Part shown: positions 2,069-7,961 of the stretch, one piece after another
How the letters are laid out: each line of letters opens with the position of its first letter
Position numbering within the stretch: position 1 is the stretch's first letter
Source of the DNA: a virus
Lineage: Duplodnaviria; Heunggongvirae; Uroviricota; Caudoviricetes
Strand: one strand, 5' to 3'
DNA: 18,333 bases
IMG/VR virus record: IMGVR_UViG_2778261506_000010
Position numbers and translations under genes: made by a program
The notes under the pieces: generated by a model
Told to the model about the DNA's origin: nothing
Databases searched by the model: none
What the model saw: only the letters and a program-made list of their open reading frames with translations

Positions 2069-3544
2069 TTGAAAGAATATTTAGATATGAATACATCTCA
2101 TGTAAGAGTTGTTACTCATATGTGTGGGTTCCTGGTTTGGCTCTATAGTCTTTCAATGTTGCCACCAATGGTTGTAGCATTGTTTTATAAAGAAAAAAGC
2201 CTGTTCGTTTTCTTTATAACTTTCGTTATATTTTTTTGCATTGGTGGCGGAGCGTGGTATACAACTAAGAAATCTGGCATTCAATTACGTACCCGTGATG
2301 GGTTTATTATAATTGTAATGTTTTGGATTTTGTTTTCTGTTATTAGTGCATTCCCTTTATGGATTGACTCAGAACTTAATTTAACGTTCATTGATGCTCT
2401 GTTTGAAGGGGTTTCTGGAATAACAACAACAGGAGCAACTGTAATTGATGATGTTAGTTCATTACCTCGGGCATATTTGTACTATCGGTCACAGTTAAAT
2501 TTTATAGGTGGTTTAGGAGTTATTGTTCTGGCGGTTGCTGTATTGCCATTATTGGGTATTGGTGGTACAAAGCTTTATCAGTCAGAAATGCCGGGGCCAT
2601 TTAAGGATGACAAACTCACTCCCCGCCTGGCCGATACGTCACGGACACTGTGGATAACTTATTCTTTATTAGGTATTGCTTGTATTGTCTGTTATAGACT
2701 TGCAGGAATGCCTTTGTTTGATGCTATTTGTCACGGGATTTCCACAGTTTCGCTTGGTGGTTTCTCAACTCATAGCGAGAGTATCGGATATTTTAATAAC
2801 TATTTGGTTGAGCTGGTGGCTGGTTCTTTTTCCCTGCTATCGGCTTTCAACTTCACTCTTTGGTATATTGTTATTAGCAGGAAAACGATAAAACCTTTAA
2901 TCAGAGATATTGAACTTCGTTTCTTTCTGTTAATAGCCTTAGGGGTGATCATTGTTACCTCTTTCCAGGTCTGGCATATAGGTATGTATGACTTGCATGG
3001 AAGTTTTATTCATTCGTTTTTTCTTGCCAGCTCCATGCTCACTGATAATGGTTTAGCTACGCAGGATTATGCAAACTGGCCCACGCACACGATAGTGTTT
3101 TTGCTGTCGTCAAGTTTCTTTGGGGGATGTATAGGTTCAACTTGTGGTGGAATTAAGTCACTTCGATTTCTTATACTTTTCAAACAAAGCAAACACGAGA
3201 TAAATCAGCTTTCTCATCCCAGAGCGTTGTTGAGTGTAAATGTAGGAGGGAAGATAGTTACAGATCGTGTAATGAGGTCTGTATGGAGTTTCTTTTTTCT
3301 TTATACTCTCTTCACGGTGTTTTTTATACTGGTGTTAAATGGTATGGGATATGATTTTCTTACATCATTTGCAACAGTGGCTGCATGTATTAATAATATG
3401 GGATTAGGTTTTGGGGCTACTGCATCGTCATTCGGAGTGCTTAATGACATTGCAAAATATTTAATGTGCATAGCTATGATTCTTGGTCGCCTTGAAATTT
3501 ATCCTGTTATTATATTGTTTTCAGGTTTTTTTTGGCGCTCCTAA
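2069..3544 (+). CDS. trkG: TrkH/TrkG-family potassium uptake membrane protein (Rac prophage trkG-like)
   Basis: 491-aa polytopic membrane protein with TrkH-family hallmarks (...FEGVSGITTTGATV..., ...LPLLGIGGTKLYQSEMPGPFKDDKLTPR..., ...GGCIGSTCGGIKSLRFLILFKQ..., ...ILGRLEIYPVIILF...). Very AT-rich compared with flanking phage genes. Start is TTG 2069 (SD-like AAGGTGG 6 nt upstream) or ATG 2087 (MNTSHVRVV...). Confidence 0.9.
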   Translation: MKEYLDMNTSHVRVVTHMCGFLVWLYSLSMLPPMVVALFYKEKSLFVFFITFVIFFCIGGGAWYTTKKSGIQLRTRDGFIIIVMFWILFSVISAFPLWIDSELNLTFIDALFEGVSGITTTGATVIDDVSSLPRAYLYYRSQLNFIGGLGVIVLAVAVLPLLGIGGTKLYQSEMPGPFKDDKLTPRLADTSRTLWITYSLLGIACIVCYRLAGMPLFDAICHGISTVSLGGFSTHSESIGYFNNYLVELVAGSFSLLSAFNFTLWYIVISRKTIKPLIRDIELRFFLLIALGVIIVTSFQVWHIGMYDLHGSFIHSFFLASSMLTDNGLATQDYANWPTHTIVFLLSSSFFGGCIGSTCGGIKSLRFLILFKQSKHEINQLSHPRALLSVNVGGKIVTDRVMRSVWSFFFLYTLFTVFFILVLNGMGYDFLTSFATVAACINNMGLGFGATASSFGVLNDIAKYLMCIAMILGRLEIYPVIILFSGFFWRS

Positions 3545-3628
3545 TATATGGCTGATTTATAATTGTGAGTTTAATATTATATTGACTCACTCATTGATCC
3601 AATACCTAACTTTACCAGCAACACCTCC

Positions 3629-3665
3629 GCCCCCAGTAGCACTGGCTGCTGGGGTGCGTTTTATT
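3629..3665 (+). terminator. intrinsic terminator downstream of trkG
   Basis: About 10-bp stem CCCCAGTAGC / GCTGCTGGGG (one G-U pair), 4-nt loop ACTG, then GCGTTTTATT. Confidence 0.5.
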
Positions 3666-3681
3666 CATAAAGCAAGGCTGT

Positions 3682-4470
3682 ATGAGCGAGAAATTAAAGA
3701 TAGTCTATCGCCCATTACAAGAATTGTCACCGTATGCGCACAACGCCAGGACGCACAGTACTGAGCAGGTGGCACAACTGGTAGAAAGTATTAAGCAATT
3801 CGGCTGGACTAATCCGGTGCTGATTGACGAAAAGGGCGAAATTATTGCGGGTCACGGTCGTGTTATGGCGGCTGAAATGCTCAAAATGGATTCTGTTCCG
3901 GTCATTGTTCTGTCTGGCCTGACGGATGAGCAGAAAAAGGCGTACCGCCTGGCAGATAATCGCCTACCGATGAATGCTGGCTGGGATGAAGATCTGTTGC
4001 GGATGGAGCTGTCGGACCTAATCAATGCTGATTTTGATGTCTCCCTGACAGGCTTCGGCCCGACAGAAATTGATGAACTGTTGACGGATGTTTTGCCCGG
4101 TACAGGAAATAAGGAGGAGCCGTATACGACGAAAATTGATACGCCTGTTTATGAGCCGTCGGGCGGTAAACCGGATATCAGTGAACTGTACGACGATACG
4201 AAAACTCAGGAGCTGATCAGCCGGATACGTTCGGCGTCCCTTGAGCCTGATATTGAGAAATTCCTCCTGTGTGCGGCAGAACGTCACACGGTGTTTAATT
4301 TCAGCAGAATTGCGGACTATTACGCTCATGCCCCCGCTGAAATTCAGTGCCTTTTCGAGGAGTCGGCGCTGGTGATCATTGATTATCAGCAGGCTATTGA
4401 AAATGGATTTGTCCGAATGACGCAGCGCATGGTGGCGATCATGCATAGCGGGGAGGAGGAATATGCGTGA
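3682..4470 (+). CDS. ParB-like nuclease (ParB N-terminal/sulfiredoxin-like) domain protein, ynaK-like
   Basis: 262-aa ORF. N-terminal region resembles the ParB N-domain (...YRPLQELSPYAHNARTHSTEQVAQLVESIKQFGWTNPVLIDEKGEIIAGHGRVMAA...). C-terminal half is acidic with no obvious known domain. Confidence 0.7.
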   Translation: MSEKLKIVYRPLQELSPYAHNARTHSTEQVAQLVESIKQFGWTNPVLIDEKGEIIAGHGRVMAAEMLKMDSVPVIVLSGLTDEQKKAYRLADNRLPMNAGWDEDLLRMELSDLINADFDVSLTGFGPTEIDELLTDVLPGTGNKEEPYTTKIDTPVYEPSGGKPDISELYDDTKTQELISRIRSASLEPDIEKFLLCAAERHTVFNFSRIADYYAHAPAEIQCLFEESALVIIDYQQAIENGFVRMTQRMVAIMHSGEEEYA

Positions 4471-5326
4471 TGATTTTTGCGCCTTTATTCTGACTCACGG
4501 GCGACCGGACAAAGTTCTGACTTACCGGACGTTGCGTCGTGCTGGCTATACCGGGAAAATTTTTATCGTTGTTGATGATGAAGATAAGACACGGCATCAG
4601 TACATGGCTGAATTTGGTGAACAGGTGCTGGTATTTTCCAAAGCAGATATTGCCAGTCGTTTTGACGAAGCCGATAATTTTGGTGACCGCCGCTCAATTT
4701 TTTACGCCCGTAATGCCTGTTTCGACCTGGCAAAACTGGTCGGGTGTAAATACTTCATTCAGCTCGATGATGATTATCACGAGTTCCAGTTTCGGGTGGA
4801 TCGCAACTATGACCAGGCCTATTTCCCGATAAGGAAACTGGATGCGATCCTTTCTGAAATGCTGGCGTATTACGAATCAATACCCGCGCTTTCCATCGCT
4901 ATGTCGCAGGGCGGGGATTTTCTTGGTGACAATGGCGGCCATGCTTCGTGGGTGAAACGCAAGGCAATGAACAGCTTTATCTGTTCGGTTGATCGACCGT
5001 TCTCATTCATGGGGCGCATTAACGAGGATGTGAATACGTACACGAATCTCGGTCGCCGTGGTGAATTGTTTATGACGATCGGTGCTGTCCAGTTAGGGCA
5101 GAAACAGACGCAGAAAAACAGCGGCGGAATGACCGAGCTGTATCTGGATTCCGGGACCTACGTTAAAAGTTTTTATTCCGTCATGTATGCGCCGTCGTGC
5201 GTAAAAATCTCACTGATGGGCGCCAGCCATAAACGCATTCACCATCAGGTCACCTGGAACAACGCTGCAGTAAAAATCCTTCACGAAAAATACAGGAAGA
5301 AGACACCCTGCATATTAATGGGGTGA
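4463..5326 (+). CDS. hypothetical protein, GT-A-fold (family 2-like) putative glycosyltransferase, ydaY-like
   Basis: 287-aa ORF with SD GGAGGAGG 5 nt upstream; start overlaps the ParB-like stop (ATGCGTGA), indicating translational coupling. Motif layout resembles GT2 enzymes: FILTHGRPD (cf. IPTYNRP), IFIVVDDED (cf. IVVDDGS), FYARNACFDLAKLVGCKYFIQLDDDY (DxD region). No obvious TM helices. Confidence 0.75.
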   Translation: MRDDFCAFILTHGRPDKVLTYRTLRRAGYTGKIFIVVDDEDKTRHQYMAEFGEQVLVFSKADIASRFDEADNFGDRRSIFYARNACFDLAKLVGCKYFIQLDDDYHEFQFRVDRNYDQAYFPIRKLDAILSEMLAYYESIPALSIAMSQGGDFLGDNGGHASWVKRKAMNSFICSVDRPFSFMGRINEDVNTYTNLGRRGELFMTIGAVQLGQKQTQKNSGGMTELYLDSGTYVKSFYSVMYAPSCVKISLMGASHKRIHHQVTWNNAAVKILHEKYRKKTPCILMG

Positions 5327-5329
5327 CAA

Positions 5330-5581
5330 ATGATTCCGTATTCGAAAGTCGAGTCTCTGGCAGCGTGCCGGATGACTGCACAACAAATCGCTGACGTACT
5401 GGATGTTGATCTGAACCGACTGAAAGAAAATCGGGAAGCAATGACAAATTTTTACGCGTCCATCCGTAAGGGCAGAGCGAAAGGTGAAGCCGAGCTACGG
5501 GCGGCATTGTTTAAGCTTGCCAGAAAAGGGGATGCCTTTGCCCTGCGCGAACTACTCAGGGTGGATAAAAATCAGGACTAA
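5330..5581 (+). CDS. small hypothetical protein (83 aa), possible HTH DNA-binding or terminase-associated protein
   Basis: ORF sits tightly between the GT-A-like gene (stop 5326) and terminase small subunit (start 5585). Putative HTH segment MTAQQIADVLDVDLNRLKEN. Confidence 0.55.
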   Translation: MIPYSKVESLAACRMTAQQIADVLDVDLNRLKENREAMTNFYASIRKGRAKGEAELRAALFKLARKGDAFALRELLRVDKNQD

Positions 5582-5584
5582 CTG

Positions 5585-6679
5585 ATGAGCAGACCGGACT
5601 GGGGGGCGTTGCAGCAGGAGTATATTGCTGAATACACCCGCTCCGGTATATCTCCGGTGGCATGGTGTGAAGCAAGGGGACTGAATTACGCAACAGCCCG
5701 TCGTTACATCAAAAAACCTCCGAAAAATGCGCAGACAGAAATGCGCAAAACTGCGCAAAAAAGTGCGCAGAAAAAATCTGCGCAGACTGCACAAAAGCGG
5801 AACGGAAAATCTCAGGAAAAAAAGCCAGTATCCGATGCGTACCTGAATGAGGGCGATGCGGAAGAAATTTCGTTCTGTCCCGATGAATTCGGCGTTTCTG
5901 ACCAGCAGGCGAAATTCGCAATGCTGGTTGCCCAGGGGAAAAAACTCGTTGAGGCATATCGCCTGGCAGGATACGAGTCAGAGGGGAATGCGGCCTACGT
6001 AACCGCCAGCCAGCTCCTAAGAAATCCTAAGGTTTTTCGTGCTATCAGCTACTTCCGCAATCAGTACCAGAAACGCTATACCGCAGACCTGGATTTACTG
6101 GTGAGTCAGTTGATGGCCATTGTCCAGGCCGACCCCAATCAGTTGGCACAATTTCGCCGTGTTAACTGCCGTTATTGCTGGGGCGAGAATCATCACTACC
6201 AGTGGCGCGATATAGCAGAATTCGATAAGGCAGCGGCGCAGGCCTCCAGAGATGGCAAACCCGAGCCGGAATATGGTGGCCTTGGCTTTGTTGATAACGC
6301 CATACCCAATCCGGACTGCCCGAAGTGCTGCGGTGAGGGAACGGGGCAGCTTTATATGGCTGATACCACTCTGCTTGATGGGGATGCGCGGCAATTATAT
6401 GCAGGGGCAAAGCTCGGAAAATTTGGTGTTGAGATCCTGCTGGAGGATAAGGCTGCCGCCCGGCGTGAATTGTTGCGTTTGCTTGCTGCTGGCGGGGCTT
6501 TATGTGCAGATAAGCGGCTACAGGAACTGGAAATTGAACGGCGCAGAATGGAAAACCAGAAGCTGCGCAAAGAGATCGAAACGGTGGAGGATAATGAACA
6601 TCCCCAACCTGTTGCGATCAATATTAATGTGGTTGATGCCAGAGTAAGGAGTGATGAAGATGATCTCTCCGACGCTTAA
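5585..6679 (+). CDS. terminase small subunit (Terminase_2-like core with N-terminal HTH, Cys4 zinc ribbon and C-terminal coiled coil)
   Basis: 364-aa ORF immediately upstream of the large terminase. Motif ...QQAKFAMLVAQGKKLVEAYRLAGYESEGNAAYVTASQLLRNPKVFRAI... matches the TerS family pattern. CxxC...CxxCC at 6167-6331. Confidence 0.7.
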   Translation: MSRPDWGALQQEYIAEYTRSGISPVAWCEARGLNYATARRYIKKPPKNAQTEMRKTAQKSAQKKSAQTAQKRNGKSQEKKPVSDAYLNEGDAEEISFCPDEFGVSDQQAKFAMLVAQGKKLVEAYRLAGYESEGNAAYVTASQLLRNPKVFRAISYFRNQYQKRYTADLDLLVSQLMAIVQADPNQLAQFRRVNCRYCWGENHHYQWRDIAEFDKAAAQASRDGKPEPEYGGLGFVDNAIPNPDCPKCCGEGTGQLYMADTTLLDGDARQLYAGAKLGKFGVEILLEDKAAARRELLRLLAAGGALCADKRLQELEIERRRMENQKLRKEIETVEDNEHPQPVAININVVDARVRSDEDDLSDA

Positions 6680-7961
6680 TGTGCCTCAGGCGCGATTTCT
6701 TTCAATGCCCCACAAATTTAAAGCCTATGTCGCTGGTTTTGGCTCGGGTAAAACATGGATTGGGTGTGGTGGCATATGCAAGGGGATTTGGGAACATCCT
6801 GGTATAAATCAGGGATATTTTGCGCCAACGTATCCCCAAATTCGCGATATTTTTTACCCTACAGTGGAAGAAGTTGCTGCTGACTGGGGATTGAATGTAA
6901 AAATTAATGAGGGAAATAAAGAGGTTCATTTTTATTACGGACGTCAGTATCGGGGAACCACTATCTGCAGATCGATGGAGAAGCCGCAAACGATCGTCGG
7001 TTTCAAAATTGGTAATGCGCTGGTGGATGAACTGGACATTTTGCCGAAGGAAAAAGCCAGAACAGCGTGGCGCAAGATAATTGCGCGTATGCGTTATAAG
7101 GTTGATGGACTTCGCAACGGTATTGACGTTACAACCACGCCGGAAGGATTCAAATTTGTCTACGAGCAGTTTGTTAAAGCCGTGCGTGAAAAAACAGAGC
7201 TGGCCTCACTGTATGGTCTGGTGCAGGCATCTACTTTCGATAATGAAAAGAACCTGCCAGCAGATTACATTCCTTCGCTTCTTGAGTCATACCCTCCAGA
7301 GCTGATTAAAGCCTATCTTCGAGGACAGTTTACTAACCTGACAAGTGGTACTGTTTACCATCAGTTTGACCGGAAACTGAATAATTGCGAAGAAGTGGAG
7401 CAGCCAGGGGAGCCGATTTATATTGGGATGGATTTTAACGTTGGAAAGATGGCGGGGGTCGTCCATGTACTGCGTTTGGGGCTTCCATGTGCGGTAACTG
7501 AAATCATCAATGCCTACGATACACCGGATATGATCCGCATCATTAAAGAACGCTTCTGGCTGTATGACGGGAATGATTACCGGAAAGTGAGGGAGATTTA
7601 TATTTATCCAGATGCTTCCGGAGATTCCAGAAAATCAAGTAACGCAAGTACGACGGATATAGCCCAGCTTAAGCAGGCTGGTTTTAACGTTGTGGTGAAC
7701 AGCTCGAACCCGCCAGTAAAAGATCGCGTTAACTCAATGAATGCAATGTTCTGCAATGCCAATGGCGAACGTCGCTATAAAGTTAATGTGAAGCGTTGTC
7801 CGGTATATGCCGAATCTCTGGAGCAACAGGTCTGGGATGATAAGGGGGAGCCTGATAAAAAATCAGGCAACGATCACCCGAATGATGCCGGAGGCTATTT
7901 CATCGTTAAGCAATTCCCTATTATCAAACCGACCGGAAGAGTCACATCACTTCGGATTTAA
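6660..7961 (+). CDS. terminase large subunit (ATPase/nuclease)
   Basis: Walker A-like motif AGFGSGKTW near the N-terminus; acidic nuclease-like C-terminal motifs (IYIGMDFN..., ...GNDHPNDAGGY). SD AAGGA at 6646-6650 favours ATG 6660; the track start 6651 is GTG. Overlaps the end of the small subunit gene. Confidence 0.85.
   Translation: MISPTLNVPQARFLSMPHKFKAYVAGFGSGKTWIGCGGICKGIWEHPGINQGYFAPTYPQIRDIFYPTVEEVAADWGLNVKINEGNKEVHFYYGRQYRGTTICRSMEKPQTIVGFKIGNALVDELDILPKEKARTAWRKIIARMRYKVDGLRNGIDVTTTPEGFKFVYEQFVKAVREKTELASLYGLVQASTFDNEKNLPADYIPSLLESYPPELIKAYLRGQFTNLTSGTVYHQFDRKLNNCEEVEQPGEPIYIGMDFNVGKMAGVVHVLRLGLPCAVTEIINAYDTPDMIRIIKERFWLYDGNDYRKVREIYIYPDASGDSRKSSNASTTDIAQLKQAGFNVVVNSSNPPVKDRVNSMNAMFCNANGERRYKVNVKRCPVYAESLEQQVWDDKGEPDKKSGNDHPNDAGGYFIVKQFPIIKPTGRVTSLRI

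Follow-up and report, generated by a model that had tools for sequence, protein, structure and literature searches.

The name of Pfam family PF20691, TAGT, stands for 'TET-Associated Glycosyltransferase'. The family takes in the DNA glucosyltransferase of phages T2 and T6 that adds a second glucose to glucosyl-5-hydroxymethylcytosine (glucosyl-5hmC), and a 2026 survey found TAGT homologues of undefined function without an alpha- or beta-glucosyltransferase (alpha-GT, beta-GT) in 288 of 753 phage genomes encoding glycosyltransferases (PMC13216743). Here we analyse a gene pair in an 18,333-nucleotide stretch of viral DNA (IMG/VR record IMGVR_UViG_2778261506_000010; the whole stretch is called the window), which represents a Rac-type lambdoid prophage of Escherichia coli. 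The pair encodes a TAGT-family glycosyltransferase of 287 amino acids (aa) and, directly upstream, a 262-aa ParB-like protein (YnaK; hereafter the partner), which combines an N-terminal module (N-module) with a C-terminal domain (C-domain) that we propose to act as an adaptor for TAGT.

Phage DNA-modifying enzymes have been connected with clamps and ParB-like proteins before. The alpha-GT of T4 co-purifies with the gp45 sliding clamp (PMC13216743). To act on double-stranded DNA, a phage thymine dioxygenase requires a ParB-fold protein that has an N-terminal nucleotide-binding domain and a domain at its C-terminus and lacks a DNA-binding domain; the commonest neighbours of phage 5mYOX genes are glycosyltransferases, ParBs and terminases, and many divergent 5mYOX-like proteins are missed by the Pfam model (2026 PNAS; PMC13229309). 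According to a proposal of the Aravind group, cited by Burke et al., ParB steers the modification machinery during packaging. Fusions to methyltransferases are catalogued in a survey of the ParB-CTPase fold that did not treat the ParB-TAGT pair, and we found no literature linking ParB with a glucosyl-HMC transferase.

The pair in the window resembles several of these systems in part. The T2/T6 beta-glucosyl-HMC-alpha-glucosyltransferase, a proven DNA glycosyltransferase and the founding member of Pfam TAGT in biochemical terms, belongs to the same PHROG family too and is likewise soluble, phage-encoded and of GT-A fold, but its substrate for glucose addition is alpha-glucosyl-5hmC, and it depends on dCMP hydroxymethylase and alpha-GT, neither of which is in this prophage, and no adaptor or ParB partner has been described for it. 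An orthologue of the T-even enzyme would be recognised by 5hmC machinery and alpha-GT in the genome and by close similarity to T2/T6, and here we found neither; the dioxygenase that stands alongside the glycosyltransferase in TET/JBP-associated DNA glycosylation systems is also missing. The 5mYOX176/ParB176 system is similar in its described architecture, as a ParB-fold protein with an N-domain binding nucleoside triphosphates (NTPs) and a C-terminal domain, without a DNA-binding domain, is encoded beside a modifying enzyme. That enzyme is post-replicative and such clusters often lie near terminases and glycosyltransferases, but it is an iron/2-oxoglutarate dioxygenase, whereas here the enzyme is a glycosyltransferase and no dioxygenase is present. 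Phage fusions of ParB and DNA methyltransferase (PHROG 498; PADLOC MTase_II), common in phages and often near packaging genes, carry the same module in the first 140 residues; there the module is fused straight to the methyltransferase, whereas here it is fused to the putative adaptor of a separately encoded glycosyltransferase. The alpha-GT of T4 and gp45, a phage DNA glycosyltransferase together with a sliding clamp, parallel both the ParB-fused architecture and the adaptor-TAGT-DnaN architecture described below, but the enzyme is of GT-B fold and unrelated in sequence, and its clamp contact was found by pull-down, whereas here tethering is deduced from gene order only. Finally, the animal protein GREB1 contains a homologous glycosyltransferase domain, and the NCBI name of the E. 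coli protein is 'GREB1-related'; GREB1 differs in that it is cytoplasmic, is 1,949 aa long, O-GlcNAcylates ER-alpha and has no phage, ParB or DNA context.

Results

A TAGT-Family Glycosyltransferase

The 287-aa protein matched the PF20691 profile over residues 8-222 (E 4.9e-36, 125 bits against a cutoff of 27.5) and PHROG 842, 'beta-glucosyl-HMC-alpha-glucosyltransferase', over residues 1-271 (E 1.8e-102). Its AlphaFold2 (AF2) model showed the Rossmann-like fold of GT-A enzymes, with a DxD motif for metal and nucleotide-sugar, and in the corresponding sequence, QLDDDY at residues 100-105, D102-D104 were invariant in homologues down to 62% identity. The same homologues kept four other motifs without change: DDED at 38-41, NEDVN at 187-191, GGMT at 221-224 and H260-H261. 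The peak 19-residue Kyte-Doolittle hydropathy was 1.08, so there is no candidate for a transmembrane (TM) helix, and the overall charge was mildly basic (38 against 33). The initial annotation of the window had read the protein as a GT-A glycosyltransferase with QLDDDY as its DxD motif and, for want of TM helices, as distinct from GtrB-type enzymes. Both readings were upheld: the profile searches placed it in a glycosyltransferase family and not in a non-glycosyltransferase one, and no Glycos_transf_2 match was found. Judged by profile and predicted fold, it is a soluble member of the TAGT family of GT-A glycosyltransferases, and its donor is probably a uridine diphosphate (UDP)-sugar.

The AF2 models were built from shallow alignments and were poor at residues 216-287 of TAGT and at residues 136-170 and 230-262 of the partner. 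A profile search of PDB sequences with TAGT gave no match. When TAGT was compared with the phage collection by tblastn, no T2/T6 match appeared at E 1e-3, and the enzymes of T4-like Aeromonas phages were 23-25% identical; members of the ParB-linked clade, bacterial and archaeal alike, reached at least 40% identity.

Near-Obligate Pairing of TAGT and Its Partner

Sampling one genome per species gave 73 loci, 71 of them with a TAGT open reading frame (ORF); two earlier scans of viral contigs had returned almost solely E. coli copies that were nearly identical, without any gain in diversity. The loci came from Enterobacteriaceae, Bacteroidota, Firmicutes, Veillonella, Planctomycetota, Acidobacteriota, Saccharibacteria and others, and their TAGT proteins were 39-99% identical to that of the window. 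Among the families obtained by clustering neighbouring ORFs, only TAGT (65 loci) and the partner (62 loci) were universal, the next commonest family being present in 19 loci.

For a census of partners in the 71 loci, we used separate hidden Markov models for the N-module and the C-domain. The two were fused and adjoined TAGT in 49 loci, and the C-domain alone adjoined TAGT in 14; in 3 loci an extra TAGT gene separated the partner from TAGT, and 1 held a shortened ParB-TAGT remnant. Three loci were without upstream sequence, and 1 had a TAGT fragment without partner. The C-domain accompanied TAGT in 67 of the 68 loci with upstream sequence, the lone exception being the TAGT fragment, and it was fused to the N-module in about 75-80% of cases. 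The pairing of TAGT and partner is far beyond chance, and the truly invariant partner of TAGT is the C-domain, not the ParB N-module. TAGT and the C-domain also co-vary (Mantel p about 0.001); the mean pairwise identity was 48-50% for both and 31% for the N-module.

The neighbourhood survey supports the earlier suggestion that the two genes form a functional pair. The initial annotation had listed three packed genes, and here the pair proved universal but the third gene did not: homologues of the 83-aa ORF, which resembles a fragment of the small terminase subunit (TerS; phrog_309, E 2.5e-22), were found in just 7 dereplicated loci of the enterobacterial lineage (the Yersinia equivalent is 82 aa long). 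The 83-aa ORF is lineage-specific and outside the universal unit.

The gene order ParB-TAGT-TerS followed by the large terminase subunit (TerL) was found also in metagenomic phages that differ in their head modules, and a Porphyromonas phage had it with a TAGT of just 26% identity. Among cultured viruses, an annotated ParB lies under or beside the TAGT match in Lactobacillus gasseri phage phi jlb1 and haloarchaeal virus HHTV-2 (42% identity), and phage c5 of L. delbrueckii has the full gene order. Nocardia phage NTR1 and other phages of L. delbrueckii also carry TAGT homologues. Direct fusions of adaptor and TAGT are rare, the one candidate, P0081, being possibly an artefact. The N-terminal extensions of about 180 aa in P0155, P0184 and P0196 were neither ParB modules nor adaptors.

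Modules of the Partner Protein

The partner matched PHROG 620 over its full length (E 2.5e-90) and passed the Pfam ParB_N cutoff narrowly (29.4 bits against 26.3; 8.6e-7). In Foldseek comparisons, its model superposed on Noc, PadC, ParB-CDP, KorB and sulfiredoxin (Srx). The phosphate-binding positions R23, G57, R60 and N93 are conserved, G57 and R60 (GxxR) at 91-98%. The first 140 residues, which make up the ParB/Srx N-module, matched phrog_498 (E 3.7e-51) and the N-terminal region of PADLOC MTase_II (1e-38) and are much nearer to the phage ParB-DNA methyltransferase fusions than to canonical partition ParB. This type of module is present in 428 phage records, often annotated as DNA modification methylase or found as the first gene before the terminase, and N-module proteins without the C-domain occur before terminases without TAGT, as in Vibrio phage X29. 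We rejected the partner as a canonical partition ParB (ParABS): the ParB model TIGR00180 reached 38.1 bits against a cutoff of 58.45 and only in the N-domain, the Pfam profile search found no helix-turn-helix domain, ParA was absent from the annotated prophage, and no parS-like repeats were present across 3400-6800.

An NTP-binding module next to a glycosyltransferase could also mean that the target is small. The ParB/Srx module might bind an NTP or signalling nucleotide and TAGT glycosylate it or a related metabolite, for instance to neutralise a defence signal. Against this, the ParB module is dispensable and the adaptor domain is not, the tight embedding of the cassette between polymerase and clamp genes or before the terminase would be left unexplained, and the DxD motif and the family membership point to a glycosyltransferase. 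We consider this explanation highly improbable.

Conservation along the partner was computed from 46 full-length proteins of many phyla with a median identity of 40%. The most conserved regions were not in the N-module but in a linear motif, Y148-[TS]-x-K-[IV]-x-x-P155-x-Y157-x-P (Y-x6-P-x-Y), in which Y148, P155 and Y157 are each 98% conserved, and in a helical domain at about residues 165-250. The motif falls in the linker at residues 136-170, predicted to be disordered (AF2 local confidence score, pLDDT, below 50), and is kept in proteins consisting of the C-domain only. Neither the C-domain nor the C-only proteins matched a Pfam family or had a relative among solved structures; the sole match of the C-domain in a profile search of PDB sequences, the FadA coiled coil, was judged to be due to chance. 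As a stand-alone protein of about 132 aa, the putative adaptor domain forms a family of 5,815 nameless proteins without a Pfam domain (P0383-P0502), and in every locus inspected its gene lay directly 5' of the TAGT gene in a phage replication module (e.g., L204 10001-10405 and L206 7306-7710).

The invariant tyrosines leave room for a different acceptor. TAGT could O-glycosylate a protein, either the partner itself at the invariant Tyr/Thr linker motif, in a glycogenin-like or substrate-carrier arrangement, or another DNA-associated protein reached by the clamp-bound complex, and GREB1 sets a precedent for protein glycosylation. We regard this as unlikely, if far from negligible, and as the chief alternative to a DNA target.

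The reading frame of ynaK itself is annotated inconsistently. In NZ_CP073968.1, ynaK is called a 258-nucleotide partial pseudogene (L001 20283-20540, corresponding to window positions 3682-3939), but the genome is 100% identical over the stretch and its 262-aa ORF is intact. The call probably goes back to the truncated YnaK of K-12 and would then be an artefact of annotation.

Packaging and Replication Architectures

In loci with the ParB module, the cassette stands at the head of the packaging operon. TerL was found within a few genes downstream in about 46 of the 52 loci with room downstream, and it belonged to at least four families: Terminase_6N (25), Terminase_3 (14), TerL_ATPase (4) and GpA (3). 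In the virulent L. delbrueckii phage c5, whose complete genome is 31.8 kb, the annotated cos site at bases 1-11 is followed by the partner (ORF1), TAGT (ORF2) and then both terminase subunits, the small one first.

In loci without the ParB module, it lies in a replication module instead. Four loci (L153, L157, L179 and L208) had the order PolA, in part a TAGT paralogue, C-domain, TAGT and DnaN clamp; in L206 and L207, PolA was followed at some distance by C-domain, TAGT, a cytidylyltransferase-like gene and DnaN. L147 combined a primase-helicase, C-domain, TAGT and an SNF2 helicase, and in L204 PolA preceded, with other genes between, C-domain, TAGT, dUTPase, RecA and a clamp loader. The 191-kb Vibrio phages had a primase and an exonuclease upstream of C-domain and TAGT and a helicase downstream. 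DnaN was the first large downstream ORF in four loci, all with a C-only partner. ParB and DnaN are both DNA sliding clamps.

In the window, the genes are set off from their upstream neighbour. A strong intrinsic terminator of trkG consists of a hairpin at 3631-3654, with a 10-pair stem including 7 GC pairs, followed by TGCGTTTTAT, and the hairpin lies 28 bases before the ParB start. As the terminator closes trkG before the ParB gene begins, the three genes form a close-packed group with the terminase genes and not with the cargo gene. The initial annotation had described three tightly packed genes at 3682-5581 between trkG and terS, and the ORF coordinates are as described; the overlap that it had reported between the ParB stop and the start of the 287-aa gene is the 8-base ATGCGTGA, in which the ATG (4463-4465) begins 5 bases ahead of the TGA (4468-4470). 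A GGAGG Shine-Dalgarno sequence for the 287-aa gene lies at 4452-4456, within the 3' end of the ParB gene, and overlap or abutment of the two genes is kept in most dereplicated loci.

The annotation had also placed the genes in a region that often houses accessory cargo in lambdoid phages, and a reading of them as such cargo did not hold. Their position at the lysis/packaging junction, adjoining a genuine cargo gene, would suit a host-serving role in O-antigen seroconversion or as an anti-phage defence moron beside trkG. We rejected seroconversion, as GtrB-type enzymes are GT2 proteins with membrane segments that act on bactoprenol and TAGT has neither a Glycos_transf_2/GtrB match nor a TM segment, and we rejected the defence-system reading, as TAGT had no match among the PADLOC models of anti-phage defence (nor did the 83-aa ORF; the N-module matched only the N-terminal region of MTase_II). 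The terminator, the packing with terS, the place of the cassette as the first genes after cos in phage c5, and its occurrence in jumbo and replisome-encoding phages further leave a host-serving role with hardly any credibility. Instead, the cassette is a module of wide distribution that is linked to packaging or replication and found also in a virulent phage.

Accessory Genes of the Cassette

Some loci add genes to the cassette: a second TAGT, a TAGT fused to a class-I S-adenosylmethionine (SAM) methyltransferase (O-methyltransferase-like), a TAGT fused to Sulfotransfer_2, a radical SAM enzyme, or UDP-glucose dehydrogenase (Ugd) with a nucleoside diphosphate (NDP)-sugar epimerase/dehydratase. 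These optional additions are all sugar-related, concerned with sugar nucleotides or glycan tailoring. The Ugd and NDP-sugar epimerase/dehydratase genes follow TAGT in L194 (8844-11101), and the gene inserted between TAGT and DnaN in L206 (8560-9282) and L207 (11255-11977) is a CTP_transf_like cytidylyltransferase. The inserted genes for sugar or alditol activation hint at donors besides UDP-glucose. In two Clostridia prophages (L174 8830-9816 and L198 8860-9816), the radical SAM gene has a tandem TAGT pair on one side and the terminase genes on the other; it is of a generic SPASM/MoaA-like type and under all NCBIfam cutoffs.

The Acceptor and a Proposed Mechanism

Our favoured reading, held with moderate confidence, is that a clamp-tethered TAGT decorates phage DNA, the acceptor being left unspecified. 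We favour it because of the family and fold of TAGT, its catalytic motifs, a pairing that is near-obligate, and the exclusive tie of the cassette to DNA-handling machinery. TAGT would work with a dedicated adaptor, the C-domain of the YnaK-type protein, and the fused ParB/Srx NTP-binding module would load the adaptor-TAGT complex on DNA as a clamp. The sugar would be added to phage DNA during preparation for packaging, a timing suggested by late-operon genes that are translationally coupled and lie just 5' of the terminase. In replisome-encoding phages, the ParB module is dropped and adaptor and TAGT lie between DNA polymerase and DnaN, a position that implies replication-coupled modification. 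A sugar on DNA would most plausibly blunt restriction or other DNA-sensing defences of the next host. Physical binding of adaptor and TAGT, tethering to a clamp, DNA as the acceptor and the anti-defence role are all steps that we infer.

Several observations weigh against this reading. A TET/JBP dioxygenase or a dCMP/dUMP hydroxymethylase of the thymidylate-synthase type was absent from the window and from an annotated near-whole copy of the prophage, the sole base-modification gene of the latter being an N6-adenine methyltransferase adjoining ninB. The 50 ORFs of phage c5 showed no dioxygenase or thymidylate-synthase signature, and its larger unknown ORFs, the largest of 208 aa, had no Pfam match; dCMP hydroxymethylase and alpha-GT were absent from the prophage annotation and from c5. 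No acceptor-generating enzyme recurred among the neighbour families of the 65 loci or in the Pfam-annotated neighbourhoods. We know of no DNA glycosyltransferase that acts on canonical bases, all those known to us needing a hydroxylated base or a pre-attached sugar. The partner is strongly acidic (45 D/E vs 24 K/R), an unusual property if it is to work on DNA, and without a recognisable DNA-binding domain, and AF2 modelled both the adaptor domain and the C-terminal third of TAGT poorly. GREB1, also a TAGT-domain protein, glycosylates a protein, and literature reports of DNA modification in phages with the TAGT-partner pair were not found.

An acceptor could still be supplied by classical second-step DNA glycosylation, where TAGT would act on a 5-hydroxymethyl-pyrimidine or glycosylated base made by an enzyme not recognised in our searches. 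This is the sole biochemically proven reaction of a phage TAGT, divergent 5mYOX-like proteins are known to escape the Pfam model (PMC13229309), and some loci carry a second TAGT paralogue. The flanks of the replication variants held PolA, primase, exonuclease, the TAGT paralogue, Ugd and epimerase, and 7 loci had a C5-cytosine methyltransferase, its distance from the cassette varying and no dioxygenase accompanying it. Searches for a hidden dioxygenase or hydroxymethylase yielded none, and the unannotated proteins of 377 aa and 402 aa between PolA and the cassette were related neither to each other nor to PDB entries. The lack of kinship between these two neighbours, the conservation of only TAGT and partner across loci, the gene content of phage c5 and the just 23-25% identity to T4-like enzymes all speak against a second-step reaction, which we consider improbable.

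Clamp-tethered glycosylation also has a bolder form, in which the adaptor-TAGT pair glycosylates canonical unmodified DNA directly, without prior hydroxymethylation, while riding a ParB-type or DnaN clamp. We hold this to be possible but rather unlikely.

Taken as a whole, the initial annotation is supported in part. Its proposal that the pair modifies phage DNA as an anti-restriction measure stands, with the moderate confidence given above, as to a DNA target and lacks the acceptor-generating enzyme; the fold and the pairing hold, and the genes are not lambdoid cargo. It had further put the system forward as a candidate undescribed one, and the pair indeed has not been characterised experimentally, but the glycosyltransferase family already had a name.

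Features of the Locus and Its Surroundings

The segment 3400-5700 is 100% identical to many complete E. coli genomes, in which the upstream gene is named trkG, the ParB-like gene ynaK and the 287-aa product 'hypothetical' or 'GREB1-related protein'. Matches to the segment were found in 1,619 of 5,426 complete E. coli genomes, and they covered at least 80% of it in 867. The coordinates of the features are collected in Table 1.

Table 1. Features of the TAGT cassette and its flanks (window coordinates)
Feature	Position	Strand	Remarks
Intrinsic-terminator hairpin of trkG and T-run	3631..3664	+	Upstream limit of the cassette
ynaK-type partner gene, 262 aa	3682..4470	+	ParB/Srx N-module, acidic linker and TAGT-specific C-domain
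ParB/Srx NTP-binding N-module, residues 1-140	3682..4101	+	Assigned by profile, fold and residue conservation
Linear motif Y148-T-x-K-I-x-x-P155-x-Y157-E-P-S	4123..4161	+	In predicted disordered linker
Helical C-domain, residues ~165-250	4174..4431	+	Invariant TAGT partner
Translational-coupling junction	4452..4470	+	GGAGG Shine-Dalgarno, TAGT ATG and ParB TGA
TAGT-family GT-A glycosyltransferase gene, 287 aa	4463..5326	+	DxD D102-D104 at nucleotides 4766-4774
83-aa ORF	5330..5581	+	Resembles a small terminase subunit fragment
TerS (5585-6679) and TerL (6651-7961)	5585..7961	+	Conserved downstream context

Downstream of the cassette, terS contains five TGCGCA palindromes within 57 bp (5728-5784), where a repeated AQK/SAQK peptide is encoded. 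The whole window has 11 copies of TGCGCA, which is not above chance, and the clustering is local. The cluster could be a pac site, a site recognised by TerS, or simply a consequence of the peptide repeat.

Other loci showed further genes of note around the cassette. In a Yersinia enterocolitica prophage (L006 2180-3332), an Enterotoxin_a/Scabin-like gene followed by an LT-IIB gene forms a pair resembling the AB5 heat-labile enterotoxin, and it occupies the cargo slot that holds trkG in E. coli, with the lysis genes on one side and the ParB-TAGT cassette on the other. A Veillonella prophage (L187 12020-13603) encodes, in its head-morphogenesis region, a 527-aa protein with a C-terminal Ntox50 toxin domain. 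In a metagenomic phage with the ParB-TAGT cassette, two Glycos_transf_2 genes lie after the capsid gene (L002 15837-16894 and L003 8659-9716) and may serve a separate function in virion glycosylation.

Discussion

The TAGT family is already named and ParB-assisted DNA-modifying enzymes are already known; the adaptor-TAGT cassette itself is not characterised experimentally. The 'solitary' TAGTs of the present clade are not solitary, being locked to an adaptor domain that is tied to a ParB clamp at the packaging genes or to the replisome clamp. If their target is DNA, the cassette would represent either a new pathway of modification or a new means of delivery, and ParB, recently shown to activate DNA-modifying enzymes, would have this role in a second enzyme class. 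It would then bear on the evasion of restriction and other defences, on the sequencing of phage DNA and on enzyme tools for DNA tagging. Should the pair glycosylate canonical DNA directly, this would be a new DNA-modification chemistry in phages of many bacterial phyla and haloarchaea, present in roughly one-sixth of complete E. coli genomes. As the locus is found intact in 867 of the 5,426 complete E. coli genomes and in culturable phages such as c5, the function of the cassette is directly testable.

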